From positions 65,969,089 to 66,032,769 of the forward strand of contig NC_057718.1 of NCBI RefSeq assembly GCF_004010195.1: a DNA stretch of 63,681 nucleotides, given 5' to 3'. Made by a program: the position numbers and the translations under genes. Shown one piece after another: positions 2,376-47,988 of the stretch; position 1 is the first letter of the stretch, and the number at the start of each line of letters is the position of its first letter. The stretch comes from Chiloscyllium plagiosum (taxonomy: Eukaryota). The notes beneath the pieces are model-generated. The model was not told the origin of the DNA and did not search any database. It was given only the letters and a program-made list of their open reading frames with translations.

Positions 2376-2822
2376 CCATATTATGGGTGGTGTGCTAACT
2401 GAACCAACAGTTACTTCTCATCTTATTGCTTTTGTAAAGTTGGTAGTGAGCTGTTGTTTTGTGCTGCTATATTCCACCTGGTGCAGAATTGTTGCAGGAT
2501 TTTCACCCACAAACAGTAAAGGAAGTCTAGTATTGTTCTAAGACTTTGTCTGACTTGGAGGGGATCTTGCATGTGTTGGTGTTCCCATGTATCTGCAGTC
2601 CTTGTACATTAGGTGATAGAGATTGCAGGTCTGGAAAGTGCTGTTGAAGGAGCCTGGGTGAGTTGCTGTGATTCGTCTTGCATAGTTGTGCATTGGTAGT
2701 GGAGGGAGCAAATGGTATTTCTGATTCATTTGTGGGATCTTGGCATCACTGGCTGTGGTACCAATTATTAACCATCCCTAAGTACTCAATTAAGAATCAA
2801 CCACATTGTTGTGGATCAGGTG

Positions 2823-2910
2823 AAGAAGGGCTTATACCCAAAACGTCAATTCTCCTGCTCCTTGGATGCTGCCTGACCTGCTGTGCTTTTCCAGCAACAC
2901 ATTTTTCACC
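2823..2910 (+). mobile_element. Single Neptune-type PLE terminus fragment
   Basis: aagggcttatacccaaaacgtcaattctcctgctcc... flanked by direct repeat atcaggtg (2815-2822 and 2911-2918). Confidence 0.7.
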
Positions 2911-4787
2911 ATCAGGTGTAACGTGTAGACCAAACAAATTAAAAATGACATCTAGGCACAGTGGTAGTATCCCTGCCCTGAACCAGGGAGACCCGAGTTC
3001 AAGTCCCACCTGATCCAGAGGTGTGTAATAACATCGGCGAACAGGTTGAATAGGAAAATAGGTTAATAAAAATAAAATTGATGGAAATCCTTCCCTAAAG
3101 TATATTAGTGAAGTAGATCGGTTTTTATAACAGTCAGCAGTGGTCACATGGTAGGCTAACTTTTTATTGAATCCTGATTTTTTTCATTTGCCATGGTGAG
3201 ATTTGAGCCCTTGACCCCAGAGCCTTACCTTGGGATTAAAGGTTACTAGTCGTGTGACATTATCAAAACACTGCCACCTTCCACTCCAGTGAGCTGCTTT
3301 GTTCTGGTTGGCAATGAGCATGTTGAATATTATTAAATTGTACTTATCTAAGTAATTGGGGAGTATTTAATCACACTCCTGACTTGTTCTTTGTAAATAG
3401 TGGGCAGGCTTTGCAAAATCAGGAGATGACCCATATGTAGAATTATGGATTGAGTGCAGAACTGAAAGCAGCATTTGGCTATTATTTGGAGGTGCGGGTG
3501 TTGGACCCGGTTATAGTCCCAACAGGTTTATTTGGAAGCAATAGCATTTGGAGCATTGCTTGTGGAGTATAAGATTGTAAGACAGAATTTATAGCCATTG
3601 TGGCTCTGTCAGGTCCTTGCAAGTGTATCACAGCGAACACTAGTGTCCAGTCGTAATTATACTCACTGCAGAATTCCCAGATACTGACCTACTCTTATAG
3701 TCACAATCTTATAAAACTGATTCAAATATTTAGATGACACTTGGGGGATTTGGACTTTTGAAGAAACTGAATTAGAAGAATTCACTTGTGTCCTCAATAA
3801 TTATTACCTGTCCATTAAACTTAAAGCCACACCACGTATGGAATACTAATTTCCTTGGCATCATTGTATTTCAGTTGGCACAAGGGAAATAAGCTTAAAT
3901 CAAAATTTTATTTAAAAAACATGCATTTCTACACACAGTAAATCTTTATGTTGCTGAGGATGCAATTAATTTATCATATGTGCAGAAAGTTAGCAGTTTT
4001 TTAATTACATATTGGATTGTAGTACTTTGAGAAAGCAGCTCACCACTACCTACTCAAGTACAACTAGAAATAGACAATAAATGTTGGCCTAGCCAACTCT
4101 CATGAATGAATAAAGAAAAATGAAATAAGACAGAGGGCATGCAAAAAGATTCCTCAGCAAATTGTGTTCATTTTTTTAAGAGAATTAATTAAGCTACCTT
4201 TGGCAAATTGAGTTAACGCCAAGATTGGTTTGCTTACAACATCTTGCACAATGACCCAATAAAGAAACAAAATGAAGAATCATTTTGAAAAGTTAAAAAC
4301 TGAGTCAGTTTACTGAGTCAATATAACATAACATCAATTTTTAAAAGTGGCGTGATCCTAAAGTGTTCATTAGCCATCAGCAGATCAGATTTAGAATGCA
4401 AACCAAACCATTTAAAAAAAAATATTCTTTCCACCTTTCTTTGGTTTTTTTTCTTCCTCTCCTCACCACCTCACACATGCCATGTGTTGCCCTACATTCT
4501 CTTCCTCCCTTGTTTTCTCATTTTCCCAGTACTGCATGTCAAATGATTTGTGGAAGTTAAATGCAGGTAGTCCCTGGATTGCAAATGGTTCCATTCTTGA
4601 GTCTGTCCACAGATCGATTAGTGTGTAAGTAGGAACACTATGCAGGACAATATAATATACCCATTTGTAAGTACAGGAAATGTTCATATGTTGGATTTTT
4701 GAAATTAAACCCTTGTATGGGATCACATACGTTTTGGATGTAGATTTGCTTGCTGAGCTGGAAGGTTCATTTCCAGACGTTTCGTTA

Positions 4788-4996
4788 GGAGAAAGTGAGG
4801 ACTGCAGATGCTGGAGATCAGAGCTTAAAAATGTGTTGCTTGAAAAGCACAGCAGGTCAGGCAGCATCAAAGGAACAGGAGAATCGACGGTTTGGGCATA
4901 AGCCCTTCATCAGGATTTCCTGAAAAAGGGCTTATGCCCAAAACGTCGATTCTCCTGTTCCTTTGATGCTGCCTGACCTGCTGCGTTTTTCCAGCA
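4788..4996. mobile_element. Fold-back (hairpin) mini-element made of two inverted Neptune-type PLE termini
   Basis: Inverted arms centred near 4916. Flanked by 14-bp direct repeat cagacgtttcgtta (4774-4787 and 4995-5008). Confidence 0.85.
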
Positions 4997-5033
4997 GACG
5001 TTTCGTTACCCTACTAGGTAACATCTTCAGTGG
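4995..5033 (-). ncRNA. Minimal type I hammerhead ribozyme motif (Poseidon-type PLE terminus)
   Basis: Minus strand reads CCA-CUGAAGA-U-GUUACC(UAGUAG)GGUAAC-GAAA-C-GUC-UG. The core is intact and stem II has 6 perfect pairs. Before the nested insertion, stem I was CCA/UGG. Confidence 0.8.
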
Positions 5034-5034
5034 T

Positions 5035-5850
5035 AAAAAACAATGACTGCAGATGCTGGAAACCAGATTTTGGATTAGTGGTGCTGGAAGAGCACAGCAG
5101 TTCAGGCAGCATCCGAGGAGCAGCAAAATCGATGTTTCGGGCAAAAACCCTTCATCAGGAATAAAGGCAGAGAGCCTGAAGCGTGGAGAGATAAGCAAGA
5201 GGAGGGTGGGGTGGGGAGAAAGTAGCATGGAGTACAATAGTGAGTGGGGAAGGGGATGAAGGTGATAGGTCAGGGAGGAGGGTGCAGTGGATAGGTGGAA
5301 AAGAAGATAGGCAGGTAGGACAAGTCATGGGGACAGTGCTGAGCTGGAAGTTTGGAACTAGGGTGAGGTGGGGGAAAGGGAAATGAGGAAACTGTTGAAG
5401 TCCTGGGGTTGAAGTGTTCCGAGGTGGAAGATGAGGCGTTCTTCCTCCAGGTGTCTGGTGGTGAGGGAGCGGCGGTGAAAGAGGCCCAGGACCTCCATGT
5501 CCTCGGCAGAGTGGGAGGGGGAGTTGAAATGTTGGGCCACGGGGCGGTGTGGTTGATTAGTGCGGGTGTCCCGGAGATGTTCCCTAAAGCGCTCTGCTAG
5601 GAGGCATCCCAGTCTCCCCAATGTAGAGGAGACCGCATCGGGAGGAACGGATGCAATAAATGATATTAGTGGATGGGAAGGTAAAACTTTGATAGATGTG
5701 GAAGGCTCCTTTAGGGCCTTGGATGGAGGTGAGGGAGGAGGTGTGGGCGCAGGTTTTGCAGTTCCTGTGGTGGCAGGGGAAGGTGCCAGGATGGGAGGGT
5801 GGGTTGTAGGGGGGTGTGGACCTGACCAGGTAGTCACGGAGGGAACGGTC
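5035..5850 (-). mobile_element. 5'-truncated Neptune-type PLE (Cys-rich linker, GIY-YIG, 3' terminal repeat)
   Basis: Minus-strand frames give LLAERFREHLRD...VAQHFNSPSHSAEDM and EEERLIFHLGTLQP. Homologous to the copies at 10722-12052 and 16440-17596. Confidence 0.85.
5129..5160 (-). ncRNA. Minimal hammerhead motif (Neptune-type terminus)
   Basis: Minus strand UC-CUGAUGA-A-GGGU(UUUU)GCCC-GAAA-C-AUC-GA. The core is intact but stem I is only about 2 bp. Confidence 0.7.
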
Positions 5851-7773
5851 GAAGCATTGCTGAAAATTCCTGCTTTCTATTTATATGTTTGGGTTTCTTT
5901 GGGTTGATGATGTCATTTCCTGTGGTGATGTTATTTCCTATGGTAAAGTCACTTCCTATTCCTTTTTTCTCAGGGGGTGGTATATGGGGTCTAACTCGAT
6001 ATGTTTGTTGATAGAGTTCCGGTTAGAATGCCATGCTTCTAGGAATTCTTGTGCGTGTCTTTGTTTGGCTTGTCCTAGGATGGATGTGTTGTCCCAGTCG
6101 AAGTCATGTCCTACCTTATCTGTATGTGAGGATACTATTGAGAGAGGGACATGTCTTTTTGTGGCTAGTTGGTGTTCATGTATCCTGTCGGGGAGAGTGG
6201 CTAGGGTTTCTGGACATGTTTTGTCTGCTTGTTTGGGTTTGTTGCTGAGAAATTGGCGGACTGTGTTCATTGGGTGCCCATTTTTTAATACGCAGTATAG
6301 GTGATTTTCCTCTGCTCTGCATAGTTTCTCTGTGCTACAGTGTGAGTTGGCTCGTTGAAATAATGTTCTGATGCAGCTTCGTTTGTGGGTGTTGGAATGA
6401 TTGCTTTTTGTAGTTCAATATTTGGTCTGTATGTATTGTTTTCCTGCAGACGCTGGTTTGAAGTTCCCCATTGGCTGTTTGCTCTACTATGACATCTAGG
6501 AATGGCAGTTTGTTGTTGCTTTCCTCCTCTTTGGTGAATTTTATGCCAGTAAGGATATTATTGATGGTCTTGAAGGTTTCCTCTAACTCATTTTGTTTAG
6601 TGATGACAAAGATGTCATCCACGTAGCAGACCCAAAGTTTGGGTTGGATGGTTGGCAGAGCTGTTTGTTCAAGTCTCTGCATTACTGCCTCTGCTAAGAA
6701 CCCTGATATCAGAGATCCCATGGGTGTTCTGTTGGTTTGTCTGTAGGTTTTGTTGTTGAAGGTGAAGTGTCTGATAAGGCATAGGTCCACTAGCTTGATT
6801 GGTCTGCAATTTAGAGCTAGCCTCAGTAATGATGACAGTGAAACCATAATTGATGGTTGTAAAAGTTTATTTGGTTCACTCATGTCCTTTACCTTTCCTT
6901 ACCATCCTTGCTTTACCTGACCCATATGCAGCTCCAGCTCCAAAGTAATTTGGTTGACTCTTAAACTTTTTCTGAAATTGCATAATTAATCACTCATTTG
7001 AAGGGCAGTTAGTGGTGAGTAATAAAATTTGGCTCCCAGCAATGTCGACATTATCATGAAAGAAATGTTGAAAACTACAAAACTATGAAGAAGGCACTGG
7101 AACATTAGATAGCTGGGAAATGTATCTTTTTAAAATGTTCTTGGGTTTGCAAATTCGTAAGAAAACTTTCCACACTCATAGTTTTTTTGGTTTATTTAAA
7201 TATACATAATTCTGATAGTTACAACATTTAATGTATAACTTCAAATTTTTGTGTCATTACTGTTTTTGAAGCTTATTCAAAATTTTTCAAACTTCTGTGG
7301 CAAATCTATTTGATATTTATTTAGTTAATATTTGTTTGTTACCTTTTCATCTCATTTACGAAAAATGCCATTCTCAATTATTCTTCAATGTTGCTTGCTA
7401 CTGAAAATCTTATTATTACTCCATGTTGCATCTAGTGTTTTAAACAATCCAGCACAATAAAATTTGAAGTGGTTAGGATGTGAGAAATCCCTCAGCTTCT
7501 GTTCGCTACAACCACTGTGCATGACATATCTGATTTGGAGTCTTGATGTGTACTGTCCATAACGACTAGTCGACTGATAGTCTTACCTATGTGGTTGCAT
7601 TTTCTACTGGCGTGGTGCTGTCCCAGTTGGGTGTTACTGCTTCAGTAGTAACTGATACTGAATGCTCAGGTTTTAAACATGCAGAAAATAAAGATACCTG
7701 GTGTAAATTAATTTAACAGTGGATGTATTTCAGTCAGTAGTTGTGATTAAAAATTGGCAAATAAAGAGGTCTC

Positions 7774-8029
7774 GAGGAAAGTGAGGACTGCAGATGCTGG
7801 AGGTCAGAGTCGAGAGTGTGGTGCTGGAAGAGCACAGCAGGTCAGGCAGCAGCCGGGGAGCAGGAGAATTGACATTTTGGATATAAGCCCTTCATCAGGA
7901 ATCATTGGACCTTCATCAGCTTATCCCAAAGCGTCAACTCTCCTGCTCCTCGGATGCTGCCTGACCTGTGCTTTTCCAGCACCATACTGTCGACTCTGAT
8001 CTCCAGCATCTGCCGTCCTCACTTTCTCC
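7774..8029. mobile_element. Fold-back mini-element (two full inverted Neptune-type termini)
   Basis: gaaagtgaggactgcagatgctggag at the left is mirrored by ctccagcatctgccgtcctcactttctc at the right. Confidence 0.85.
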
Positions 8030-9581
8030 AAGTATCTTGGGATGTTTTACAAGTAAAAGGCAGTTTACAAATATACGTTGTTGAAATTCCTCTGAAAACA
8101 AAAAATCTGTAATGTTCAATATTTCTGGCTTTAAGAATGAGAAGTGAATGTATTATTGATTAATCGTTTGCATCGGTATTTAAGGGGAAAACTTGTAATT
8201 CAGTTAATTTGGGGGCAAGTCTGATTTATAATTACTGCTAATCTGCAATATGGAAATAAAATACATTGTAACTATTCACTTTAATGAATTTAGCCAAATG
8301 AAAGTATTTAGCTAATGTTAAAGCAGATGCATATTTGATGAAATACTGTAGCGTTGTAGGCTCAGTTATTCAGTTGCTTTAGTTTCAAATTCCCTGGCTC
8401 AGCCAGCTGATTCCCATGGGAACACCTCAGCAGCTGCCCCAGAGGCTGCAGCTATCTATTTCTTCAAATTTGTCTCATTGTTGGTCTATTTCTTTCTTCT
8501 TATAGAATACCACGGTGCAGAAAGGGACTATTTAACCCACCAAGTCTGCCCAGCTCTTGTAATAAGCAATCGTATTAATCCCTCTCCCTGGGTCTTTCTT
8601 ATATATTTTTGCAATTTTTATTCTTATTTAAGTACTTAGTAAATTCTTCTTTCTTAATTATTATTGAATCTGTTTCCAGAGTTCTACATTTCAGCTCTAT
8701 TCAGATCCCATTCCTTATATCCTGTATAAATACGCTAACCTTTAATGTTCTCACCTGCTATTGCTCCAAACTGGAAATGTTTTCCCCCGATTTCCACTCT
8801 CCCTTCACCTGCATATTGTTTATCTCCAACTATTGCAATTCTTCCTTGTCTTTTGTCTTCATTTCTTTGGTAAGGCTATCAACTAATGTCCTCTAATAAC
8901 TCATATTGACTTGCACGGTGACCATTGTTACACTTCCTTCCACCTTGGTTTCTGTAAGAGTTCTATTCAGTTTAGCCAATGCCTTATCTCTATTCTGCCA
9001 ATACCAGAACCTTTTATACCAATTGCTTTGATATGTCTTTCCTTTTCTTCTGTGGACTTTCAACCATGGCTAACAAAGTTGCAGGCACTCCAATCCCAGA
9101 TACTGTCACTCTTGCCCCTTTTCAACCTTCTGTAACCACAATTGGATTCCTCTTGTCCTCACCACTAACCCCTCAAAGTCCTGTATTCAACGGACTATCC
9201 TCTGCCATTTCCACAGCCAAGATGTCATCACTGAGCATGTCTATTTTTTTTCCTTAGCAATTTGGCATTCCAAGTAACCCCTCATCTCTTTTTGTAATTT
9301 AGCCCCTCTCGTGCCATTGCAGACATTTCCTTTTTGTTTTTTTTCCCACCAAACTCAATTAAATATCTAATATTTTTCCTTGGTCTGGTGAAATTTATTA
9401 ATCTGAAATATTAACACTTACTTTCTTTCACCATAGAGGGTGCCAGACTTCAGAGCATTTCCAGGCTGATCTTTTGAACTCAGTCTTCATAAATACCAGG
9501 ATCATGTATACCTTGTTAACTATTTTAATGAGTTGTCTTGTTATCTTTAAAAGTGTAATTTTTTTTTCTTTTACTTCACAG

Positions 9582-9626
9582 TTCTACAAACATGTGGTTC
9601 AGAGCGTGGAAAAGTTTATTCAAAGG
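9582..9626 (+). CDS. SCAF8: SCAF8 internal coding exon (probably exon 3), CID domain: FYKHVVQSVEKFIQR
   Basis: Polypyrimidine tract plus CAG acceptor (ttttcttttacttcacag), GTAAGA donor, 45 nt, phase 0/0. Peptide matches the SCAF4/SCAF8 CID segment FYKHVVQSVEKFIQK as I recall it. Confidence 0.95.
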
Positions 9627-10721: not shown

Positions 10722-12052
10722 GACGAAAGTGAGGGCTGCAGATGCTGGGGATTAGAGTGGAGAGTGTAGTGCTGGAAAAGCACAGCAGGTTAGGCAGCAT
10801 CCGAGAAGCAGGAAAATCGACGTTTCGGGCAAAAGACCTTCATCAGGAATAAGGCTGGGAGCCTCGGGTGGAGAGTCAAATAGGAGGTTAATGGGCTTGG
10901 GGGGAAGGTAGCTGAGAGTTCAAAAGGTGGATGGAGGTGGGGGTGATGGTGATGGGCCGGAGGGGAGGGTGGAGCGGATAGGTGGGAAGGAAGATGGGCA
11001 GGTCATGAGGGCAGTGCTGAGCTGGAAGGTTGAAACTGGGGATAAGGTGGGACAAGGTGGAATGAGGAAACTGGTGAAATCCACATTGATGCCATGGGAT
11101 TGGAGTGTCCCGAGGTGGGAGATGAGGTGTTCTTTCTCCAGGTGTCGGGTGGTAAGGAAGTGCCAATGGACGAGGCCCAGGACCTGCATGTCCTCGGCAG
11201 AGTGGGAAGGGGAGTTGAAGTATTTGACCACGGGGCGGTGGGGTTGGTTGGTGAGGGTGTCCCGGAGATATTCTCTGGAGCGCTCTGCGAGTAGGTGTCC
11301 TGTCTCCCCAATATAGAGGAGACCGCATCAGGAGCAATGGATACTGTAAATGATGTGTGGACAGGGCAGGTGAAACTTTGATGGATATGGAATGCTCCTT
11401 TGAGGCCTTGGATGGGGGTGGAGCGGGGAGGTGTGGGTGCAGGTTTTGCAATTCCTGTGGTAGCAGGGGAAGGTTCCCAGAGGGGAAGGTGGGTTGTTGG
11501 GGAACGTGGACTTGATGAGGTAGTCGCAGAGGGAACGATCTTTACAGAAAGCGGATGGCGTGGAGAGGGAACTATATCTCTGGTCTTGGGGTCCATTTGT
11601 AGTGGCAGAAAAGGTGGAGGATGATGCAATATATATGGAAGTTGGTTGGGTGGAAGGTGAGAACCAGGGGGTTCTGCCCTTGTTGCAGTTGGAGGGGTGG
11701 GATTCAAGGGTGGAGGTGCAGGAAGTGGATGAGATGTGCTGGAGGGCATCATCAACCACCTGGGAGGGGAAATTGCGGTCTTTTAAAAAAGGAGGCGATC
11801 TGGTGTGTTCTGTGGTGGAACTGGACCTTCTGGGAACAGATGCGGCGGAGGATTTGGGAATAAGGGATGGTGTTTTTACAGGAAGCAGGGTAGGAGAAGG
11901 TGTAGTTCAGGTAGCTGTGGGAGTTATTGGGTTTGTAGAAAATGTCATTGTTGAGTCGGTCATCGTTGATGGAGATAGAGAGGTCCAGGAAGGGGATGGA
12001 GGTGTCGGAGATGGTCCAGGTGAGTTTAAGGTCGGGGTGGAATATGTTGGTG
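10722..12052 (-). mobile_element. 5'-truncated Neptune-type PLE (RT C-terminus, Cys-rich linker, GIY-YIG), frameshifted
   Basis: GTFPCYHRNCKTCTH linker and YFNSPSHSAEDM motif. 3' terminal repeat ends in ...cctcactttcgtc on the minus strand. Confidence 0.88.
10817..10848 (-). ncRNA. Minimal hammerhead motif (Neptune-type terminus)
   Basis: Minus strand UC-CUGAUGA-A-GGUC(UUUU)GCCC-GAAA-C-GUC-GA. Intact core, palindromic ACGU, one mismatch in stem II. Confidence 0.7.
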
Positions 12053-14467: not shown

Positions 14468-14657
14468 CAGGTCAGGTAGCATCTGAGGAGCAGGAGAATC
14501 AATGTTTCAGGCATAAGCCCTTCATCAGGAAAGGCCGATGAAGGGCTTATGCCCAAAACGCCGATTCTCAAGTTCCTTGGATGCTACCTGACCTGCTGTG
14601 CTTTTCCAGCACCACACTCTTGACTCTGATCCCCAGCATCGGCAGTCCTCACTTCCT
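14468..14657. mobile_element. Fold-back mini-element (Neptune-type termini)
   Basis: Arms inverted around aagcccttcatcagg-aaag-gccgatgaagggctt. The minus-strand hammerhead at 14499-14530 keeps CUGAUGA and GAAA. Confidence 0.85.
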
Positions 14658-15313
14658 TCTTCTATAACATCTTGTAAGGTCTTGCGCAACAATACTGATG
14701 CTAGCTTTTTGTTCCAGGTTTTATTGATTAAACTAACAAATTCTCCACCTATTATGGTGAGGTTTGCCCTGGTCTGTGTGGATTTGCATTATATCAACAT
14801 AATTACTGTCAGTTTTGTCATTGCGATTGATGATAATTTGATAGAGAGCGTAAACTTCAAGCTACATATAATGAAGAATAGCAATTAAATGCTTTTTTTT
14901 AAATTTGAGGTATGCTCCACTTCCAAAATGTAGTCTACTTTGACGGTACCGTATTTGATCAGAAAGGATACTATATTTATGTCATCATTGCACGTGTTAT
15001 ATTTTCTCAGAGTGAGGAATACACCAAAGAAACTATGATCTTTTATGAAAATATACAGAAATTATGTTATGAAGATCTGATCATTAATAACTCTTGAACA
15101 ATAACATTATTTGAATTTTTTGCCTAAAACTAATTACTGAAGGTGTTGGAATAAAACTTATTCTAATGATATTAGACTTTGCAGTAGCTATATGCTCAAG
15201 CAGTTTGCTTAAGTAAGATTCATCTTTTTAATGCGGTTTTAAAACATCTTTTTAAGATTGATATAAAGAATGTCTACTTGGCATATATTCAAGGTATCTT
15301 GACCGCTGACTTA

Positions 15314-15425
15314 CAATCTAGAGTGTGGTGCTAGAAAAGCACAGCAGGTCAGGCAGCATCCGAGGACCTGCTGTGATTTTCCAACATCATACTCTCAACT
15401 CTGATCTCCAGCATATGTCAGTCCT
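15314..15425. mobile_element. Fold-back mini-element with deleted centre
   Basis: gaaaagcacagcaggtc and gacctgctgtgattttc are inverted arms. Direct repeat cgctgactta at 15304-15313 and 15426-15435. Confidence 0.8.
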
Positions 15426-15612
15426 CGCTGACTTAGCATGACAAAATATCAGAAATTCTCAGCCATTGATACTGTAGATGTTACTATGTATAAGTTGACT
15501 TCTGAAACCTTGAAAAACACTCCCAAAAACTGGTTAATTCTATACCGAGTGTAGAAGTGAAGTACTGGCACGGGTGTCTGTTATTTTAAAGAATCAATGT
15601 CAGTCATCCAGT

Positions 15613-15701
15613 TAAAAATCTCACAATACCAGGTTATAGTCCAACAGGTTTATTTGGAAGCACTAGCTTTCAGTGCGCTGCTCCTTCATCAGGTAGCTGG
15701 G
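15613..15701 (-). mobile_element. Third-family hammerhead-bearing short element (probable PLE terminus)
   Basis: Minus strand UAC-CUGAUGA-A-GGAGC(AGC)GCACU-GAAA-G-CUA-GUG at 15661-15695. 10-bp direct repeat gtcatccagt (15603-15612 and 15702-15711). Related copies at about 3488-3595 and 31658-31820. Confidence 0.75.
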
Positions 15702-16439
15702 GTCATCCAGTGCAGCAATAGGCATGTCTTAAACTCTGAGGCATTTTCAAAACATTTTCACCTCTTTCTGAAGTCCCCAGTATTTCAGATAGCAGTCTTC
15801 AGCCAATTCAGTTCTCTAGGATATCACAAAACAGCAGAGACATTGAATGCTGCAAAGGCTATAGTGTTTGACAATGTTCTGACAATAGTAATGCAAATTT
15901 GAACTCTGGAAGAGGCTTCTCTCCTAGTCAAGCTGTTCTAATTCGATTACAACACTGGCATCAACCCGACAATGTGGAAAGTTACGCAGATATGTTCAGT
16001 CCTCAAAACTTTAACCCAGGCAATTATTGACTTATTAGTCTACTCTTGATAGTCAACAAATTAATGAAAGGGGTTATCAGTAGTGCTTCCAAACTACATC
16101 TCCGAAGTAACCTGCTCCCTGATGTTCACTTTAGGTTGCCTTAGGACCACTCAGGGCCTAACCTCGTTACAACTTGGTCTAAACCTGTATAAAAGAACTG
16201 AACTCCATAGGTGAGGTGAGAATGAATGTTTTAAGTTGTATTTGCCCTAATAATGGCACTAAGAAGTCCTAATGAAACTGTAGCTAATCGGAATTGGGAG
16301 GAGGGCATAGGTGAGTTTAAAGGAGCTGACTCTTAACTGGTTGGTGTTATATAAAGCACATAAGTTGTTGAAGGTCAGTTATGTCAGTCCCAGGGTATCA
16401 CTGCAGTATTTTCTCCATGTAATGACCTAGACAACTTCA

Positions 16440-17596
16440 CCAACAAGGAGGTTGAGCAATTCATCAACTTCACCAACAGATTCCACCCTGACCTTAAATT
16501 TACCTGGACCATCTCTGACAGCTCCCTCCCTTTCCTGAACCCCTCCATCTCCATTAATGATGACCGACTTGACACCGACATTTTTTACAAACCCACCAAC
16601 TCCCACAGCTACCTGAATTACACCTCTTCCCACCCTACCTCCTGCAAAAATGCCATCCCGTATTCCCAATTCCTCCGCCTCCGCTGTATCTGTTCCCAGG
16701 AGGACCAGTTTCACCACAGAACACACCGGATGGCTTCCTTCTTTAGACCGCAGTTTCCCTTCCCACGTGGTATAAGATGCCCTCCAACGCATCTCGTCCA
16801 CATCCCGCATTTCTGCCCTCAGAGCCCACCCCTCCAACCGTAACAAGGACAGAATGCCCCTGGTGCTCACCTTCCACCCTACCGACCTTTGCATAAACCA
16901 AATCATCCGCCAACATTTCCGCCACCTCCAAAAAGACCCCACCACCAGGGATATATTTCCCTCCCCACCCCTTTCTGCCTTCCGCGAAGACTGTTCCCTC
17001 CGTGACTACCTGGTCAGGTCCATGCCCCCCTACGACCCATCCTCCCGTCCTGGCACCTTCCCCTGCCACCGCAGGAATTGCAAAACCTGCGCCCACACCA
17101 CCTCCCTCGCCTCCAACCAAGGCCCTAAAGGAGCCTTCCACATCCATCAAAGTTTTACCTGCACATCCACTAATATCATTTATTGTATCCGTTGCTCCCG
17201 ATGCAACGGATGCCTCCTAGCAGAGCGCTTTAGGGAACATCTCTGGGACACCTGCACCAATCAACCACACCGCCGCGTGGCCCAACATTTCAACTCCCCC
17301 TCCCACTCTGCCAAGGACATGGAGGTCCTGGGCCTCCTTCACCACTGCTCCCTCATCACCCAATGCCTATTCACTGTTCACTCCTCCCTGACCTATCACC
17401 TTCATCCCCTTCCCCACTCACCTATTGTACTCTATGCTACTTTCTCCCCACCCCCACCCTCCTATGATTTATCCCTCTACCCTTCAGGCACTCTGCCTGT
17501 ATTCCTAATGAAGGGTTTTTGCCCGAAACATCGATTTTACTGCTCCTCGGATGCTGTCTGAACTGCTGCGCTTTTCCAGCACCACTAATCCAGAAT
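16440..17596 (+). mobile_element. 5'-truncated Neptune-type PLE inserted in an older LINE
   Basis: ORF 16854-17561 reads PLVLTFHP...GTFPCHRRNCKTCAH...FTCTSTNIIYCIRCSRC...RFREH. The upstream sequence encodes the RT thumb region. The terminal hammerhead at 17503-17534 has a mutated core (CUAAUGA). Confidence 0.88.
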
Positions 17597-19746: not shown

Positions 19747-21110
19747 GTTGAAGTTGTTGTTCTGTTTGCCGTGCTGATGGATTTTATTGGAAACGTTTCA
19801 TCTCCCTCCTAAGTGACATCTTCAGTGCTGTATAACTTCTGGATGAAGTGCTGTCGTTGTGATCTGCCCTGAACTTATATGGATCTGTCTGTTGTGGTGG
19901 ATCGTTCTAATTCCTGTTTTGTACTGTAGTGATCTGTAGATAGGGTCTATTTAGCATGTTTGTTTATGGAACCATGGATGAATACCGAGCCTTCAGAAAT
20001 TCCTGAGCTTATCTTTGTTTAGCCTGTCCCAGTAATGTAATGCTATTCCAGTTGAATTAGTGTTCTTCATTGTCAGTGAATTGATATGAGAGAGGACTGG
20101 TTGTGTCATTTTGTTTGCAAGCTCTTGCTCATGTTTCCAGCTTGTTTGTTCTATGTAATGTTTCTCGCAGTTGCTGCAAGGTATTTTATATATCACATTT
20201 GTCTTGCATGTTGTGGGTATGGGGTCTTTTCTCCTGGATAGTAGTGTGGCTGTTGGTTTGTATGCTGTCAGTATTCCCAGAGGACGTAGAAGTCTTGTTA
20301 GTTCTGAGACATTTGTATTGTAGGGCAGGGTGGTCAGTGTGTTGGGGGAACAGTGTCTTTTTGTGCTGTTTGTATGCCAGGCATCGACAAATGAAGCTGA
20401 TAGGGTACCCATTATTGGTAAAGACTTTGTATAGGTGTTCCTCTTCTTTTTTGCAGAGTTCCGTGTTATTGCAGTATGTTATGGCTTGTTTAAACAGGGT
20501 CTTGACATAGCTCTGTTTGTGGATGCTGCATTGGTTACTGTTGTAACTGAGGACCTGGTCTGTATGTGTAGCCTTTCTGCACACCCTGGTAAGGAATTCA
20601 CCATGGTTCATTCATTCAACCAGTATGCCTAAGAACGCAAGTTGATTGTTGTTCTCTTCTTCTCTGGTGAACTTGCTATTGATAGAGTTGGTGTCTGCTT
20701 TTCAACTTGGGCCATTTAATGATAACAAAGGTATTGTCCACGTATCTGATCCATAGTTTGGGCTGGATCTGGGAGAGGGCTATGTTTCCTACTCATTGCA
20801 TTACCTCTTCAGCAATGAACCCAGACATGGGTGAGCCCTTGGGTGTCCCATTGATTTGTTTGTGTACCTGATTGTTAAAAACAAAGTGTATGGTCAGGCA
20901 TAGGTCCAGTAGTTTCAGAATATTATCTTTGCTGATAGTTTTGTTGTCTGTTTGTTTAGAAGTGTTGCCAGTGTTTCCATTGCTAGTTTTGTATTGATAG
21001 AAAAGGCTGAACCATAAACATTCTGGGCAGATCATAGTGACAACATACTGATGATAGACTACTAACAACTTCAACAACCTGAGCTACAGATCTTCACTAA
21101 AACCTTAAAT
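19747..21110 (-). mobile_element. Older Poseidon-type PLE with inverted terminal tail
   Basis: RT motif QINGTPKGSPMSG (ORF 20793-21077), thumb RKATHTDQVLSYNS, GIY-YIG NVIYKIPCSNCEKHYI. Degenerate hammerhead at 19788-19828 (minus strand CUGAAGA...GAAACGUU). Confidence 0.85.
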
Positions 21111-28674: not shown

Positions 28675-28824
28675 TGAAAATGTGTTGCTGGAAAAGCGCA
28701 GCAGGTCAGGCAGCATCCAAGGAACAGGATTCTCCTGTTCCTTGGATACTGCCTGACCTGCTGCGCTTTTCCAGCAACACATTTTCAGCTCTGATCTCCA
28801 GCATCTGCAGCCCTCACTTTCTCT
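28675..28824. mobile_element. Fold-back mini-element (Neptune-type termini, ribozyme centre lost)
   Basis: Near-perfect inverted arms of about 55 bp. 15-bp direct repeat catttcttaacttgc (28660-28674 and 28825-28839). Inserted in an L2-like fragment. Confidence 0.88.
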
Positions 28825-30594: not shown

Positions 30595-31657
30595 GTATGT
30601 GGTTTTCATAGTCTGTATAGTATATGCACTAAATTTAATGCAATAAAACTAAACTAATGATATGAATTCTTCAGTTTTTTTTAAATTTAATGAATCCAGC
30701 TTGGCTGATGCTACGTTTTGAACCAAACCAGCTAATTCACTTATTTATTAAGTATAGTCTGGATGAAGTCTGGATAATTTAGAATTTGAATCTTAAGCTT
30801 TGATTGAGCATAAAGTTAGTTTAGCACAGTTTGAAATTTGCTAGGTTTGAGATGAATTTCTGTTTAGAGCACTAACTTTTGGAAGTGAATTCGGAGAAGT
30901 GGAGAATGAGCAGTAACAAATGCTGGATTTCTGACCAGATGAGGAAATTATGGTTCTGATATTGGTGCTTACATCTGTAGACAGATTACAATATATTTAT
31001 AAAAGTGAAATTGATGGCAGAAGACAACTGGATACTACTTGAATTTTTAAAAAAAAATCAGATTCTTGAATCTGAAATTCTCCCCCTAAGGATATTTTAG
31101 TCAACCCTACAGCATGTGGACTTCAACGGTTTAAGAAGCCAGCTCACCATCACCTTCTTGAGGGCAACTCAGATCAGGCAATAAATGCTTGCCAGCCAGC
31201 AAAGCCCACATCCCATGCCTGAATTTTTATAAAGTAGCAACTTTGAGAAAATTAACTTTTTGCAGTGAAATGAATAATGCTTTAGTCCTTTCTCATTGTT
31301 TTAAAATGGTGCAGTAATAATATGAGATAAATCTGAAAAGCCTATTAAAAATCTTTCAGCAGATTATGTGGACTAAAAATTATTAAAATTTGTGTCATTG
31401 TATACATAGTAACTTAGATAAAATAGAACTTATTTCATTAGGAAGGAGACTAATGGTTGCCCATGTTAATTCAAGAAATGTAGTACACAAAAACAACTGT
31501 ATTTCTGGGTGTGAGGTTTTTACCAATTACAGTCCCCCACTTACCAACCCATCTGTCCAAAGAATAAGCTTTGTATGTGATTTATAATTTTAATAAAGGC
31601 ATTTTTTTTTTCCATTTGCTTGTCTTGTTGTGTACCACTGTAGTTTTAAAAGAAAAT

Positions 31658-31820
31658 GGTGTGGAGATGCTGGTGTTGGACTGGGGTGGACAAAATTAAA
31701 AATCTCAACACCAGGTTATAGTGCAGCAGGTTTATTTGGAAGAACAAGCTATCGGAGCAGCGAAAGATTGCGCTTCCAAATAGACTTGCTAGGCTGTAAC
31801 CTGGTGTTGTGATTTTTAAC
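31658..31820. mobile_element. Fold-back mini-element of the third terminus family
   Basis: caacaccaggttatag...tttggaag is mirrored by cttccaaa...ctgtaacctggtgttg. 13-bp direct repeat tttaaaagaaaat (31645-31657 and 31821-31833). Confidence 0.82.
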
Positions 31821-32699
31821 TTTAAAAGAAAATCACCATCTTGGTGTAAACCCTCGTCCAGTGCCATTATAACTCATGATTTTCACCTTATTTTGATTTA
31901 GTCACACCTATGTCTAGGTATAAATGGGTCAGGCAAAGCTGTTGGTTCCTGGCCACAGCCAACATTTTTGCATCTCTCTACTGTCTGACGACCAGCTGGA
32001 GATCTCTACCAGTAGTCAAATGCCAGTCCATCTTGGGTCCCTCTCCTAAGTCTACTGGGAGTCTATTGCAAAATCCTCTGGGTATGCTGTAATAATAGGA
32101 GTTTGGTGAAGCAGCAAAGCCAGTTGAGCTTTTCTTTAAGAAAAGATGACAGATGAAATGGCAGGCTATTCTGAGTATTTTCTTAATTTCAGTATTGAGT
32201 ATAAAATCCCAGAAATTCTTCTTGTAGGCATCCAATTTACTTTTTTTTGGGCAATTTTCAAATTCCAAGTTTGACAAACATGTAGGTAAGTAAAGAGCCT
32301 GTTCACTTTGTAAAGTCCAAATCATTTTCAGTTGGTTGAAAATTAGTGCTGGTCCCCTACTTTCACATTGTCTGTTGCTTCCTGGACATTGCTTATCTGG
32401 ACAGTTTAATTAATGTCCTCTGATGTCGCTTTGATTGGTATAAGTATCTGTTGGTTATTAGTGGTCTTCTGTTACAATTTATTTTGTTTTCTTGATGTTT
32501 ATACTTAGTCCCACTCTTTCACCTTGATTACTGAGTTGATAAGCTGTTGCAATCCTGTGTGCTGTCTCACGCAAGTGTTCAGAGATAAGCAGTTATATAA
32601 TTAATGTCTTAAATCACTAAATAATATGCTGGGCTGATTTAGACAAGTTTAACTGTAGTGGAAATATTGAATTAGTTCCTGGGCAATCTGACAGCATCC

Positions 32700-35099: not shown

Positions 35100-35302
35100 G
35101 GAGAAAGTGAGGACTGCAGATGCTGGAGAAGTCTGAATCGAAAAGGGTGACACTGGAAAAGCAGAGCAGGTCAGGCACCATCCGAGGAGCAGGAGAGTCG
35201 ACAATTTGGGCATTCTTGATGAAGGGCTTATGCCCAAATGCTCAACTCTCCTGCTCCTCTGGTGCTTCCTGACCAGCTCTGCTTTTCCAACGCCACTCTT
35301 TT
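35100..35302. mobile_element. Fold-back mini-element (Neptune-type termini)
   Basis: The left arm is complete from gagaaagtgaggactgcag. The right arm is inverted and contains a degenerate ttgatgaagggcttatgcccaaa core. Confidence 0.8.
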
Positions 35303-38300
35303 GCCAGATTATTGCTTATTGTTTTTATTCAAATAATCATTCAATGTTCTCTGAAATGCCTCCACAAACTGCCTCCTGTACACTTTCAGGAATGTTCATC
35401 CAGACCCAAACTACTCACCCATTGTGTGAAAGCATTTTGTCTCTCATCACGTTTGCAAATGACTATAAATCTATGTGCTATGATTCTGGATCCTTTGACG
35501 ATTGGGCACAGTTTATCCATGTCTGCTTTTTAAACACATGTAAACAAATAATTCACTTTTTTGAGGCTTTTCATAATTTTTGAATTTGTTATTGCACCCT
35601 TCCTTTAAGCTTTTCAGTTCCCTCCTCTGTTTTTGCATAGTATGTCCTTCTGTTCCTGGATAGTACGCCTGTGACAAGTTAGTATTTTAAGCTGTAAATG
35701 AGCGGAAGATTGCAGTGTGTTTCTTGTAGGTCACTATGATTGCAGTCTGTAGCCTCTGTTAACAGCTGCAGTTTGCATCTTCAACCAATAATGGCTTTTT
35801 GAATATGTTCCCTCAAGGTCTTGAGGTTTCCAAATAACTTTCTCTTATCAGATCATGAAGAGACCTGAGCCATATCCAAGGTGAGGAACGCTAGCAAAAA
35901 TGTGAATTTTTTTTTCCATAAATCTGTTCAGAGATGCTATTGCACACATTTGAAGCACTTGAGAACACAGGCCTCCTAGTTCATAGATGGTACACTACCA
36001 CTGTGCCAAAGAACTTCACTAGCAAACATGCACGCGGTAAACAGACCACATAAATAAACCCTGATCAAGCTGGTGTGTGCATCTTTAAGATTCCAATTGC
36101 AGGTTATAACCATATGTGCAAGAACAGGGTACCTAAAAGCATTGGGAAGAGATTCTTCAAAGCAATGTTCTGCCTTTTGACTTCCCTCCCACTTAATACA
36201 GACATGTCTTTGATATGTGGAAAATCTGCATAAGTACTTGATTGATAAATTTTGGGGTGGTGAGGGACCTGGAACTTAGGAAATAGGTGTCCAACTCCAT
36301 TCACTTGATGGGCTTAGTCTATCAATTTAGCATAGACCAAATCTGGAATTATCTGGTCACTTTGGGTTAAAATTAGTGTGCCGGCTCATTTTTACTGTAC
36401 GATAGATGCAGTGTATGGAAGATATTTATGGTTTGTGAAATCCTAATTGTCAAAATAAGTAGGTTTTATTGTGCATATGCATTCTTGCCAACTGTGTGAA
36501 ATCTGCATTTAAGTGATTTCATGATGAATTGAAATGCGAGGAAATGAATTGTAAAGATGTTCCTGAAAGGATGGCTGGAGGTCACTGAAGATACATTGGA
36601 AAATGGCAAACTGTTCCTCCTCCTGGGAGTGTAGTGGAACAGGAGGGGTTAAAGCAGTACCATAGTGCTGCTACAGCCTGTACACAGCCCTCCTGGATCT
36701 CACTGCCTTATGTACTGGAGTAATGTAGGGGCATACTTCAGCAGTACTTTCAAAGGTGCTGTTTGAGATTGAGATACCTACCTAGAGTGGCTGCAATGCA
36801 TTGAATGGTCCTGACCATATAGTCCATACATAAGTGGAGAATTATGTAATTGTTACAGCGTGGAAGGTGTCCATTAAGTCATTATGTCTATGTTGGCTCT
36901 CTGCATAATTAACGAGTTCAATTCCCTGCCCTTTCCTTTTGGTATAATTATTTTTATTCTGGTTTCTTTCTGCTTTGAAAGTTGCATAAATCTTGCTCCA
37001 TCACACACGACAGAAATGCATTTTAGATCCTAACCACTTGTTTAGAAAATAAAAATTCTTTATGCTGCCATTTTTTTGTCACTCAACTTAAATTGATATG
37101 CTCTAGTTCTTGAGTTTTCAACCAAAGGGAGCAGTTCTGTCCTACCTAGACCCTCAAAGGGACCTCTTATCAAATTTCCTCCCAATTTTTTAAAAGAAAT
37201 TCCAGCTTCTCTAATCTCTCTACCTCACTGAAGTTCTCATCCTTGGAGCTATTCTCACAAATCTTTTCTGTGTGATCTCTAAAGCCTTCATAACTGTTCT
37301 AATGTGCAATGCCTGGAATTTGATTTCAGTTCAGGTTGATCCAGTGTTATCCAGATGTTGTTCACCATCTCTTTATAAACCCCATAATTTCATATACCCT
37401 TTCAATGAGTTGTTCAAACTATCCTGCCACCTTCAGCAATTTATGCATGGTTTGTCTAGTCTCTGTACCCCATTTTATATGTTTATATTAAGTAATCACT
37501 TTCTTCCAACCCAGTTCTACATTTCATACTTTGTGTTACATTTTGTCTCTCGTGCATAATGTTGTCAACACTGTTGCTTTCCTCCTCATAGTTTACAATA
37601 CTTCCAAATTTTCTGTCATCTGCAAATTCTGTCTTTGACACCATGTCTGGGTTATTGATCTATATCAAGAAAAGCAGTGGCTGCAAGAGCAGTCAGAGGC
37701 TCAGAATTTTGTGGTGAGCAATTTGCCTCCCAACTCCTCAAAACCTGTCAACTATTTACAAAAAGAATGTCAAAAATGCAGTGGAATGTTCTTCATTATC
37801 CATATCCTTTTTAGTTTTAAGGATGACCACGGCTGCAACAACACTCACAAGGCTTAACACAATTTTGGATAAAGCAGTCTCTACAATGTACACCTTATCC
37901 ACCAATTTAGACAGTAACTTGTTCCACCACTGATGCATAGTGATAGCCGTGTGTACTATCTGCAAGATGCACTGCAACATATCACCAAGCATTTATAAAC
38001 AGCACCTTCTAAATCCATGACCTGCAACAGGCAAGGGCTGCAGATGCATAGGAACAGCACTATCTAAAAGTTCCCCTCCCAAGTCGCACACTACCATGAC
38101 TTGGAACTATGTTGAAGTGTTTTCCTCGTTGTTGGGTCAAAATACTGGAACTCCCTCCATAACAGCACTGCACATCGCATAGAATACTGCAGTTTAAGCA
38201 GATAGCTCACCACCATCTTTTCAAATGAAATTAACAATGTGCATTTAATAATGGCCTCACCAGTAATATTTGTCTCTTATGAATGAACAAAAAAAGTCCA

Positions 38301-41982: not shown

Positions 41983-42097
41983 AAGATTAGAGTGGTGCTG
42001 GAAAAGGAGGAGCAGAATGCTGCCTGACCTCTGTGCTTTTCCAGCACCACTCTAATCTTGACTCTGATCTCCAGCATCTGCAGTCCTCACTTTCGCC
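41983..42097. mobile_element. Fold-back mini-element with deleted centre, inserted in a CR1 fragment
   Basis: aagattagagtggtgctggaaaag and cttttccagcaccactctaatctt are perfectly inverted. Imperfect direct repeat tagatattt/tagaaattt. Confidence 0.8.
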
Positions 42098-43757
42098 TAG
42101 AAATTTAGTTAGTTGACAGGAAAACAAAGTTGGCATAAATAAATAATTTTCAGATTGACACATTTGAGTACCACTGAGATCCATGCTGGGTCTTAACTAT
42201 TTACATTCTACGTTAATGATTTGGATAAAAGAATTTTTGGATATATGATTGCAAAATTGCTGAAGATGCATTAATAGGTCAGAAGGTAAGTTGGGAAGAA
42301 GTCATAAGAAATCTACAAAGGGATGGTTAAGTGAGTGGACAGAAAATTGGCAAAAGGAATATAATGAAAGTAAATGTATGTATGATCACTTTGAAAGGAA
42401 GAATAGAAAGAATATTATTTAAATGTGGGCGAATTGCAGAGCTCTGAGGTGCAGGGGGATCAGGGTATCCAGATATACGCACCACTAAAAGTTGGCATGC
42501 AGGTACAGCAAGTGATTAAGAAGTCGAATGGAATACTGCTTATTGCAAGTGGAATTGAATACAAGTGTAGGCAGTTTAATTGTAATTATATAGAGTATAA
42601 TGGATTGAAAATTGGTTGGCTGATAGGAAACAAAGGGTAGTGATAAACGGCTCCATTTCAGAATGGCAGGCAGTGACCAATGAGGTACCGCAGGGATCCG
42701 TGCTGGGACCGCAGCTTTTTACAATATATGTTAATGATATAGAAGATGGTATCAGCATAACATTAGCAAATTTGCTGATGATACAAAACTGGGTGGCAGG
42801 GTGAAATGTGATGAGGATGTTAGGAGATTATAGGGTGACCTGGACAAGTTAGGTGAGTGGGCAGATGCATGGCAGATAAATGTATGGTTATCCACTTTGG
42901 TGGCAAGAACAGGAAGGCAGATTACTACGTCAATGGAATCAATTTAGGTAAAGGGGCAGTACAGAGAGATCTGGGTGTTCTTGTACACCAGTCAATGAAG
43001 GTAAGCATGCAGGTACAGCAGGTAGTGAAGAAGGCTAATAGCATGCTGGCCTTCATAACAAAGGAATTGAGTATAGAAGCAAAGAGGTGCTTCTGCAGCT
43101 GTACAGGGCCCTGGTGAGACCACACCTGGAGTACTGCGTGCAGTTCTGGTCTCCAAATTTGAGGAAAGACATTCTGGCTATTGAGGGAGTGCAGCGTAGG
43201 TTCACGAGGTCAATTCCTGGAATGGCGGGATTACCTTACACTGAAAGACTGGAGCGACTGGGCTTGTACACCCTTGAGTTTAGAAGACTGTGAGGGGATC
43301 TGATTGAGACATATAAGATTATTAAAGGATTGGACACTCTGGAGGCAGGAAACATGTTTCCGCTGATGGGTGAGTGCTGAACCAGAGGACACAGCTTAAA
43401 AATACAGGGTAGACCATTTAGGACAGAGATGAGGAGAAACGTCTTCACCCAGAGAGTGGTGGCTGTGTGGAATGCTCTGTCCCAGAGGGCAGTGGAGGCC
43501 CAGTCTCTGGATTCATTTAAGAAAGAGTTGGATAGAGCTCTCAAGGATAGTGGAATCAAGGGTTATGGAGAAAAGGCAGGAGCAGGATACTGATTAGGAA
43601 TGATTAGCCATGATCATGTTGAATGGCGGTGCAGGCTCGAAGGGCAGAATGGCCTACTCCTGCACCTATTGTCTATTGTCATAGTACTGGTGAGGGCACA
43701 TCTGGATGATCTACAGTTTTGGCTTGCTTGTTTAGGAATGAATGTAAATACATTATC

Positions 43758-45768: not shown

Positions 45769-46133
45769 AGGACGGCACAATGGCTCAGTAGTTAGCACTG
45801 CTACCTCACAGTGCCAGGGACCCAGCTTCGATTCCAGCCTCAGGCAATTGCCTGTGTGACGTTTGCACAATCTCCCATGTCTGCGTGGGTTTCCATCGGT
45901 GCTCCGGTTTCCTTCCACAGTCCAAAGATGTGTAGGTTAGGTGAATTGGCCATGCTAAATTGCCCATTGTGCTCAGAGATGTGTAGATTAGGTGAATTAG
46001 TCTGGGGAAATGTAGAGTAATGGGATAGGGGAATGGGTCTGGGTTGGTTACTTTTTGGAGGGTTGGTGTGGCGTTGTTGGGCCAAAAGGCCTGTTTCCAT
46101 TGTTTCCCTGTTTCCACTGTAGAGGTTCTATGA
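45769..46133 (+). mobile_element. V-SINE inserted in the long CR1
   Basis: Head ggacggcacaatggctcagtagttagc, B box gcttcgattcc, V-domain and tail. Confidence 0.88.
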
Positions 46134-47078
46134 TGAAAATACTCATTTAGTATCTCCCCATCTCCTGTATTTCACACAGGGTGCTTTGCTGATCTTTTGA
46201 GGAGCCCTATTCTCTCCCCAGTTACCCTTTTTTCTTTAATGTATTTATAAAATCCCTTTCTCCTTAACCCTGTTTTTCAAAGCTATCTCATGTCCCATTT
46301 TTGTCCTCCTGATTTCCCTCCAGTATGCTCCTCCTGCTTTTATACACTTCTGAGGATTCATTCGATCTCTACTATCGATACCTGACACATGCTTGATTAA
46401 AACCTCAGTTTCTGTAGTCATTCAGCATTCCCTACACTTGTCAGACTTGCCTTTCACCCTAACAGAAACATACTGTCCCTGGACACTCTCCCTCATTTTT
46501 GAAGGCTTCCAATTTTCCAGTCATCCATTTCCCTGCGAACAGCTGCCCCCAATCAACTTTGAAAGTTCTTGCCTAAGACTGTCAAAATTGGCCTTTGTCC
46601 AATTTCGAACTTTAACTTTTAGATTAGGTCTTTCCTTTTCCATTACTCTTTTAAAAGTAATAAAAAATGTTCTTGGACACACCTGATAAATACCTCTCTA
46701 TTTAACCCCAAATGTTGGTTTGTGTGCCGTTATGAGTCCTAGGGGTCGCAGTAGTCTGGCTCAGTTCTGAGATGCTCCTGATGTATGGTAGTGTGGCTAG
46801 TCCTTTTGGTTGTGGTATGTCCTCGTTCCGTGGTCTTTCTCTTAGGCATCTGTTGATGAAGTTGCCCCAACACACACAAACGAAGCTGCATCAGGACACT
46901 ATTCAAAAGGGCCACAACACACTGCAGTACACCAGAACTGCAAAAAGAAGAAGAGGAACACCTATACAAGGTATTCGCCAAAAACGGATACCCGCGCAAC
47001 CTCATCAACAGATGCCTAAGAAAAAGACCACGGAACAAGGACATACCACAACCAAAAGGACTAGCCACACGACCATAC

Positions 47079-47625
47079 NNNNNNNNNNNNNNNNNNNNNN
47101 NNNNNNNNNNNNNNNNNNNNNNNNNNNNNNNNNNNNNNNNNNNNNNNNNNNNNNNNNNNNNNNNNNNNNNNNNNNNNNNNNNNNNNNNNNNNNNNNNNNN
47201 NNNNNNNNNNNNNNNNNNNNNNNNNNNNNNNNNNNNNNNNNNNNNNNNNNNNNNNNNNNNNNNNNNNNNNNNNNNNNNNNNNNNNNNNNNNNNNNNNNNN
47301 NNNNNNNNNNNNNNNNNNNNNNNNNNNNNNNNNNNNNNNNNNNNNNNNNNNNNNNNNNNNNNNNNNNNNNNNNNNNNNNNNNNNNNNNNNNNNNNNNNNN
47401 NNNNNNNNNNNNNNNNNNNNNNNNNNNNNNNNNNNNNNNNNNNNNNNNNNNNNNNNNNNNNNNNNNNNNNNNNNNNNNNNNNNNNNNNNNNNNNNNNNNN
47501 NNNNNNNNNNNNNNNNNNNNNNNNNNNNNNNNNNNNNNNNNNNNNNNNNNNNNNNNNNNNNNNNNNNNNNNNNNNNNNNNNNNNNNNNNNNNNNNNNNNN
47601 NNNNNNNNNNNNNNNNNNNNNNNNN
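47079..47625. other. Assembly gap (N run) inside a fold-back PLE
   Basis: Run of N. Confidence 1.
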
Positions 47626-47948
47626 GTTGTCCGCTGTAGTGGTTGGTATATTGGGTCCAGGTCGATGTGTTTGTTGATGGAGTTTGTGGATGAATGCCAT
47701 GCCTCTCGGAATTCATGAATTCGACTGGGACAACACTACTATCATAGGGCAAGCCAGACAGAGAACAGCCAGGGAATTCCTAGAGGCATGGCATTCATCC
47801 ACAAACTCCATCAACAAACACATCGACCTGGACCCAATATACCAACCACTACAGCGGACAGCTGAAACTGACAACCGGAAGCGGCAGGGACAGACCACTA
47901 TAAACACCGGAGGAAACATCAAAGAAGCGCTTCGCAGGAGGCTCCCAA

Positions 47949-47988
47949 GCACTGATGATGTCGCCTAGCCAGGGGACGAAACGTTTGC
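47949..47988 (+). ncRNA. Minimal type I hammerhead ribozyme motif, sense to SCAF8
   Basis: GCA-CUGAUGA-U-GUCgCCU(AGCC)AGGgGAC-GAAA-C-GUU-UGC. Intact core, stem I GCA/UGC, stem II 6 of 7 pairs, predicted cleavage after 47985. Confidence 0.8.

Follow-up and report, generated by a model that had tools for sequence, protein, structure and literature searches.

Why do motifs resembling hammerhead ribozymes recur through the introns of SCAF8 in the shark Chiloscyllium plagiosum, and do they act in that gene? We analysed a 63,681-nt stretch of NC_057718.1 (the window; all positions are window coordinates, and offsets are counted from C3, a reference position in the hammerhead core). A sequence-only reading of this stretch had described about 15 copies or remnants of three families (A, B and C) of minimal hammerheads like those in the terminal repeats of Penelope-like elements (PLEs). 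Our results indicate, with a probability of about 0.9, that the motifs are minimal hammerheads in the 3' pseudo-long terminal repeats (pLTRs) of three PLE lineages, two Neptune-type and one Poseidon-type, which survive within the SCAF8 introns as 5'-truncated insertions, either solo or paired head to head, now decaying and likely inert.

Both strands were scanned for CUGANGA, and profile searches were seeded from the window and the genome. The profile searches identified 17 arms of family A, three elements of family B (five matches) and four arms of family C between 2818 and 48057. Fourteen arms spanned the hammerhead and about ten more were remnants, in agreement with the earlier count. The spanning arms had C3 near 2818 (+), 4913 (−), 4920 (+), 5158 (−), 7898 (−), 10846 (−), 14528 (−), 14535 (+), 17506 (+) and 35216 (+) in family A, at 5030 (−), 19825 (−) and 47952 (+) in family B, and at 15692 (−) in family C. 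A strict descriptor (core, helix II of at least 4 bp, palindromic 15.2/16.2 and an NUH site) was passed by 1 of the 14, the arm at 5030, and a relaxed descriptor (helix II of at least 2 bp) by five; the majority had decayed. The chance rate of the strict descriptor was 0.07 per window (2 matches over 30 order-1 Markov shuffles). Across the 3.56-Gb genome, an exact 28-nt family A core had 1,305 occurrences, compared with 0 for its reversed control. An Rfam scan of the window returned 17 matches at E ≤ 10, none of them to a hammerhead model; its microRNA matches proved to be fold-back pairs of these families and were rejected as microRNAs.

Genome-wide abundance was estimated from 10-kb stretches, 112 in all, spaced evenly over the larger contigs (1,074,111 called bases, 1.07 Mb). 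The sample contained 38 strict motifs (35 per Mb), which extrapolates to about 126,000 in the genome (Poisson 89,000–173,000), together with 212 A, 24 B and 71 C pLTR arms, which extrapolate to about one million. Arm density was 286 per Mb in the sample and, close to that, 398 per Mb in the window, bearing out the very high density of ribozyme-bearing elements that had been proposed. Published counts were 4,000 for coelacanth and 9,000 for Xenopus, far below the present extrapolation, although the descriptors differ (PMC4209133). The shark case adds scale and offers a large natural data set on PLE insertion.

We then anchored base-pair counts over distinct copies (144 of A, 63 of B and 76 of C). 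The core CUGANGA, GAAA and NUH was the majority form in each family. Helix I was C-G/U-A in A, A-U/C-G in B and C-G/A-U/C-G in C; helix II had 4, 6–7 and 5 bp, respectively; and helix III was shrunk to a palindrome, ACGU in A and B and AGCU in C. The unpaired base between 9 and 10.1 was A, U and A in the three families, and 10.1–11.1 was most often G-C in all of them. The sequence-only reading had described helix III as always a palindromic tetramer, apart from CpG decay in A and B. These tetramers are indeed the family forms, but the 15.2–16.2 pair remained C-G in only 68/144 A and 25/63 B copies, and G-C in 67/76 C copies. In family A it had become CA or TG in 60/144 copies; most breaks were CpG-type transitions, as expected from neutral decay after insertion. 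The helix I types listed earlier held for the family B copy at 47952 (GCA/UGC) but omitted family A, whose helix I is weak (C-G, U-A, then a U·U mismatch in 100/144 copies, then A-U). The stems earlier assigned to family C, GGAGC/GCACU and UAC/GUG, came from one decayed copy and should be replaced by the family form, GGAGC-3nt-GCUCC with helix I CAC/GUG.

The stems covaried, as had been claimed, though through few independent events. Across families A/B/C, pair 2.1–1.1 was C-G/A-U/C-G, 2.2–1.2 was U-A/C-G/A-U and 15.2–16.2 was C-G/C-G/G-C. Within family B, 87% of cells were paired over 45 distinct copies, compared with 30–42% in slid controls; pair 2.3–1.3 was C-G in 19, U-A in 14 and G-C in 9 of the 45. 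Double changes numbered 25 against 11.1 in shuffles, and the covariation score was reached in 0/500 shuffles. Separately, a family A variant (L110:8598-8760, L216:9044) carried helix II GAGC/GCUC in place of GGGC/GCCC, a compensatory double change.

We examined what the hammerheads are attached to. At 16418..17586 (+), a family A element comprises the end of a reverse transcriptase (RT), a CX4CxxC linker (CHRRNCKTC), a GIY-YIG-type endonuclease fragment and a hammerhead near 17506 that carries A in place of G5. A similar arrangement was found at 10725..12051 (−), with an RT end, endonuclease, hammerhead (C3 at 10846, intact core, one helix II mismatch) and tail, and in the 5'-truncated element at 5036..5860 (−), with a GIY-YIG fragment, hammerhead (C3 at 5158, broken palindrome) and tail. 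A genomic family A copy had ADKG, YIDD and a Pfam RT match. With the window RT fragment as query, the family B pLTR was found, at most of 30 loci, about 150–170 nt beyond the point where the endonuclease of a linker-less open reading frame (ORF) ends; the frame that begins with an ATG overlapping the ribozyme is conserved across copies. Family C, extended over 30 genomic loci, stood behind a second linker-bearing ORF after a long untranslated region, its DKG and YIDD being taken from a relative, P0121 (75% identical). The CX4CxxC linker was thus common to A and C, and the families showed YIDD/YVDD and ADKG RT motifs and GIY-YIG-type motifs with conserved C and H. RT identity was 37% between A and the C relative and 27% between either of these and B. 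These motifs suggest that A and C are Neptune-type and B Poseidon-type, as first proposed for A and B; C, which the sequence-only reading had left unassigned, stands as a lineage apart, and B comprises at least three subfamilies. Relatives of family C were present among proteins annotated from several sharks. Two full-length RT–endonuclease ORFs of 881–882 aa on 3-kb contigs (P0123, P0126) were 53–54% identical to family C.

Several points weigh against this interpretation. The lineage names were assigned by motifs, not by a tree, and Nematis also carries the linker. The RVT_1 matches support the RT identity, but Pfam GIY-YIG matched only one of the three endonuclease fragments, at E 0.053. 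No intact full-length element was found, the longest true fragments being 438 and 400 aa. Self-cleavage of the copies is predicted from sequence. In family B, covarying-pair and pair-type counts were not above shuffles (442/500 and 488/500), and the covariation comes down to one helix I pair (2.3–1.3), hence to about three events only. Helix I of family A has just 2 bp ahead of the U·U mismatch. Finally, when four natural copies were folded as dimers, the minimum-energy structures did not include the hammerhead dimer, and the monomer folds gave no active hammerhead; this result is weak because such folds do not model the hammerhead core. Long open frames considered as full-length elements were rejected, being mostly assembly N gaps. 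Many gaps of the assembly interrupt inverted or young PLE copies, which makes it probable that full-length elements are under-assembled; the window itself has gaps at 22934–23255 and 47079–47625.

The insertions have a characteristic anatomy. Each family has two classes of 3' end about 35 nt apart, and head-to-head pairs accounted for 80/212 A, 10/24 B and 42/71 C arms. Among 66 pairs, 18 with an unclassifiable end were left out; 44 of the remaining 48 joined a short end to a tailed one (p 1.5e-9 against 50%). A target duplication of at least 12 nt flanked 21/40 A pairs and 0/40 controls, with duplications spanning 12–19 nt. The inverted units were usually only 150–250 nt, with the tail on one end only. 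In the window, family A pairs were found at 4787..4995 (cores 4913 (−) and 4920 (+) both mutated, 12–13 nt target duplication, inside a family B pLTR), 7777..8035 (core 7898 (−) with a mutated GAAA), 14468..14665 (cores 14528 (−) and 14535 (+)), 15317..15429 (truncation downstream of the ribozyme), 28673..28823 (core missing, 17-nt target duplication) and 35100..35303 (core near 35216 (+), U in place of C3). A fold-back remnant of family A at 41986..42099 had no ribozyme. A family C pair at 31653..31823 joined a short and a tailed end within a 13-nt target duplication and had lost the core. The junction differed in every pair listed, which implies that each insertion creates its inverted form afresh. 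The short-plus-tailed pairs and the target duplications fit priming on both strands from two RT start sites, as described for the anole Poseidon element PAc (PMC11167929).

The 5' ends were not spread evenly. With arms at contig edges or gaps omitted (11 A, 2 C), 120 of 270 arms (90/201 A, 30/69 C) began at −12 to +7 from C3, while the 20 nt upstream of this peak held 2 A and 3 C ends; old subfamilies lacking a long reference would be miscalled in these counts, and a few nested arms are assigned to a neighbour. When uniformly placed truncations were simulated and run through this pipeline, no such peak appeared, and 11/12 solo A arms with a duplication of at least 10 nt started at −14 to +6. 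The peak was absent from family B (2/20), and family A had a smaller cluster at +28 to +47 (36/201). Ends within 2 nt of the cut site were found in 6/201 A and 1/69 C arms, so an origin of the 5' ends at the cut site was rejected (7/270 arms).

These figures bear on the proposal that the short palindromic and solo units form a non-autonomous family of their own, similar to retrozymes or to miniature inverted-repeat transposable elements, which moves through ribozyme-cut circular RNA. Short units do far outnumber long ones (32/201 A arms extend past −133), and many carry clean target duplications; moreover, tandem retrozymes derived from pLTRs have been reported, one chondrichthyan included (bioRxiv 10.64898/2026.07.22.740005). 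Such an origin is nevertheless very unlikely, given the scarcity of 5' ends at the cut site and a pair junction remade with each insertion. Animal non-LTR retrozymes resemble the shark copies in their pLTR-related type I hammerheads and dispersed monomers, but are defined by head-to-tail tandem hammerhead units (same preprint). The window copies are solo or head-to-head, and it contained no head-to-tail tandem array, for which reason a tandem retrozyme model was rejected here.

Upstream of the core, a TATA-like motif was found at −31 to −53 in 34/42 C and 28/51 B long copies, and T(T/A)TAT within 70 nt upstream in 37/44 family A copies, mostly at −35 to −38; matches further upstream numbered 1, 1 and 4 in C, B and A. 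A putative TATA box has been described in a rotifer PLE pLTR (PMC3846280), while the Drosophila Penelope promoter is TATA-less (PMC2377424). At about +50 to +77, family A also has CTGAC, a pyrimidine run and CAG (e.g. 10770–10800, minus strand), an arrangement that resembles a branch point and splice acceptor and may be a candidate for one.

To see RNA from these elements we used run X20, raw poly(A) single-cell reads, probably from a related species, of which about 2% was read at 82% likeness with many loci pooled. A family C copy attracted 3,523 reads, strongly one-stranded, which ran across the predicted cut site; coverage did not fall there and read ends did not accumulate. Poly(A) was carried at +57 by 367 reads and at +60 by 474, and A(A/T)TAAA stood 12–15 nt ahead of these positions in 38/42 C copies, accompanied by a GU-rich downstream stretch (L171:1983-2003; window 15647–15654, minus strand). 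Uncut, polyadenylated family C RNA exists; absence of cutting is not demonstrable from these reads, in which a few loci may dominate. Fragmented poly(A) reads are blind to a 30-nt cleavage product, and Logan contigs to ends and strand. Family A gave 1,851 reads, with both strands alike, no end pile-up and no poly(A) in the loose ends displayed, and the poly(A) finding is therefore limited to family C. No shared A(A/T)TAAA was found in families A and B. Of the sequencing runs listed as carriers, none was recorded as RNA, and run X21 gave 0 matching reads. Family C, at about 66 arms per Mb, may donate poly(A) sites and 3' ends to host transcripts.

The TATA-like box, an inferred transcript start near −8, the poly(A) ends at +57/+60 and the RT starts near +85 and +122 together suggest that the shark Neptune-type pLTR is laid out like a retroviral long terminal repeat. 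U3 would hold the TATA box near −38, R would run from about −8 through the hammerhead to the poly(A) site, and U5 would extend to the RT starts. On this layout, reverse transcription would begin close to the 5' end of the RNA and run off, and copying the remainder would require a strand transfer to the 3' R; the roughly 400,000 stubs that begin immediately ahead of the core would be strong-stop cDNAs, made from uncut RNA and then integrated. An RT stall at the folded ribozyme would be expected at its 3' side, where family A does have the smaller cluster at +28 to +47, and not at its 5' edge. We put this layout forward tentatively, at somewhat less than even odds. A search for papers on Penelope and strong-stop DNA, subscription papers not covered, found none that was relevant. 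If the layout is right, the Penelope replication cycle becomes testable from genome sequence, and the ribozyme is removed from end formation. The end statistics and this one RNA data set point to an uncut RNA template and an LTR-like arrangement of promoter, poly(A) site and RT starts, which bears on what the ribozyme does in PLEs.

Could the motif then be a hammerhead in looks only, kept as a promoter, a start-codon context or a protein-binding hairpin? Its position at the inferred transcript start and, in family B, over the ATG would suit such a role, as would poly(A) reads that cross it uncut; in the anole, core mutants insert in vitro and no RNA-seq reads end at the cut site (PMC11167929). 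The same anole motif, however, cleaves in a core-dependent manner with protein added (PMC11167929), and the catalytic positions, bulge, G10.1–C11.1, palindrome and NUH have been kept in three lineages whose RTs are only 27–37% identical. We regard a purely non-cleavage role as unlikely.

The preferred reading, that these are minimal hammerheads in pLTR insertions, would imply the following course, drawn in part from published work on other species. With both strands nicked by the element endonuclease, reverse transcription would initiate at two positions within the RNA, so that one arm would be short and the other tailed. The ribozyme of an active element would cut slowly, either as a dimer through the ACGU/AGCU palindrome or with the element protein; dimer cleavage was described by Lunse et al. 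(via a review, PMC6765202). Most of the stubs seen here were probably copied from uncut RNA to its 5' end, just before the core. The ribozyme would be under selection in active lineages, the window copies being dead insertion stubs.

Much of this has precedent. Minimal hammerheads in metazoan PLE pLTRs were described in 2014 by Cervera and De la Pena, and that work already covers the motif class, its location in pLTRs and how abundant it is across fish and amphibian genomes (PMC4209133), with fish Xena, Poseidon and Neptune elements among the carriers. The shark motifs share the type I core lacking helix III, the palindromic 15.2–16.2, the bulge before helix II and G10.1–C11.1, as well as several consensus families per genome, mostly as single copies or close opposite-strand pairs. 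Unlike the Schistosoma families of that study, A and C have shorter helices (helix II 4–5 bp, helix I 2–3 bp). The motif class is known, and the literature searched contained no paper on the shark copies (Repbase, Dfam and two supplements lay outside that search). Sharks were absent from the one searchable supplementary file of PMC4209133 (file 1 not covered). As in anole PAc (Frangieh et al., 2024; PMC11167929), the family B hammerhead contains the start of the ORF. Further shared points are a tail delimited by two RT start sites within the RNA, insertion from an uncut RNA template (probable in the shark) and a lack of RNA-seq ends at the cut site. The PAc work included assays with purified protein, whereas the shark elements are known here from sequence and reads; the 5' hot spot before the core and the poly(A) site in the pLTR are features that the text covered here does not describe for PAc. 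Like endonuclease-bearing PLEs (Arkhipova et al., 2013, PMC3846280; Craig et al., 2021, PMC8557442), the shark elements show 5' truncation, head-to-head inverted pLTRs, a one-sided tail of 30–40 nt, target duplications and a putative pLTR TATA box. The duplications are longer than in the rotifer PLE (12–19 against 8–10 nt; PMC3846280), and the inverted unit is usually 150–250 nt.

Does the host gene use any copy? Every hammerhead copy in the window is intronic (SCAF8 introns 2–5). Exons 3–8 map on the plus strand at 9579–9635, 30430–30594, 38899–39066, 55060–55197, 56380–56559 and 61569–61652; the fourth of these was 100% identical to catshark SCAF8 protein, and exons 1 and 2 lie about 42 and 15 kb upstream of the window. 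A role in cutting or regulating SCAF8 pre-mRNA would find its best candidate in the family B hammerhead at 47949..47988 (+; GCA/UGC helix I, site GUU), the sole copy in SCAF8 sense with an intact core, and in a probably related species family C supplies, at some locus, a poly(A) signal that works. Against this, the 47952 copy belongs with a dispersed subfamily (46-nt identity to genomic locus L208) and has no intact same-strand partner in the window. All five sense copies of family A are core-mutated, the arm density is near that of the genome sample, and the near-intact family C copy is antisense. This copy is a solo stub at 15600..15695 (−), whose hammerhead (15661–15695) has an intact core, one helix II mismatch, the AGCU palindrome and site CUA, with AATAAA downstream. 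Intact cores were found in 1/6 sense and 6/8 antisense copies, which was not significant (Fisher p 0.10). Domesticated intronic hammerheads of amniotes are single-copy and conserved at an orthologous site; the shark copies are multi-copy and decaying. Nothing suggests a role of the copies in SCAF8, and retention by the host is extremely improbable.

The remaining copies illustrate the layering of insertions. The region 4728..6898 (−) is nested in three layers: a Poseidon-type family B element (RT 6338–6898, RVT_1 E 1.2e-8; endonuclease at about 5959–6414) broken by two Neptune-type family A insertions. One of these, the family A palindrome, sits exactly behind the cut site of the family B hammerhead at 4994..5033 (−; C3 at 5030, 7-bp helix II), whose helix I is cut to 2 bp because the insertion lies there; it is the window's sole strict match. 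An older family B element at 19750..21001 (−) has a hammerhead at 19789–19828 with an intact core and decayed helices, and a third at 46713..48057 (+) contains an inverted 5' piece and the assembly gap at 47079–47625. Family A also left a solo pLTR stub at 2818..2905 (+) with C3 mutated to G, and family C a remnant at 3505..3597 (−) with most of the hammerhead deleted.

The window contains other repeats as well. RT fragments of a non-PLE long interspersed element type lie at 791–2358 and 44849–45791 (RVT_1 E 9e-11 at 1903–2355). A further dispersed repeat, unrelated to the hammerheads and probably a short interspersed element, occurs at 21260–21393, 27817–28082, 43793–44045, 45887–46107 and 51721–51987.

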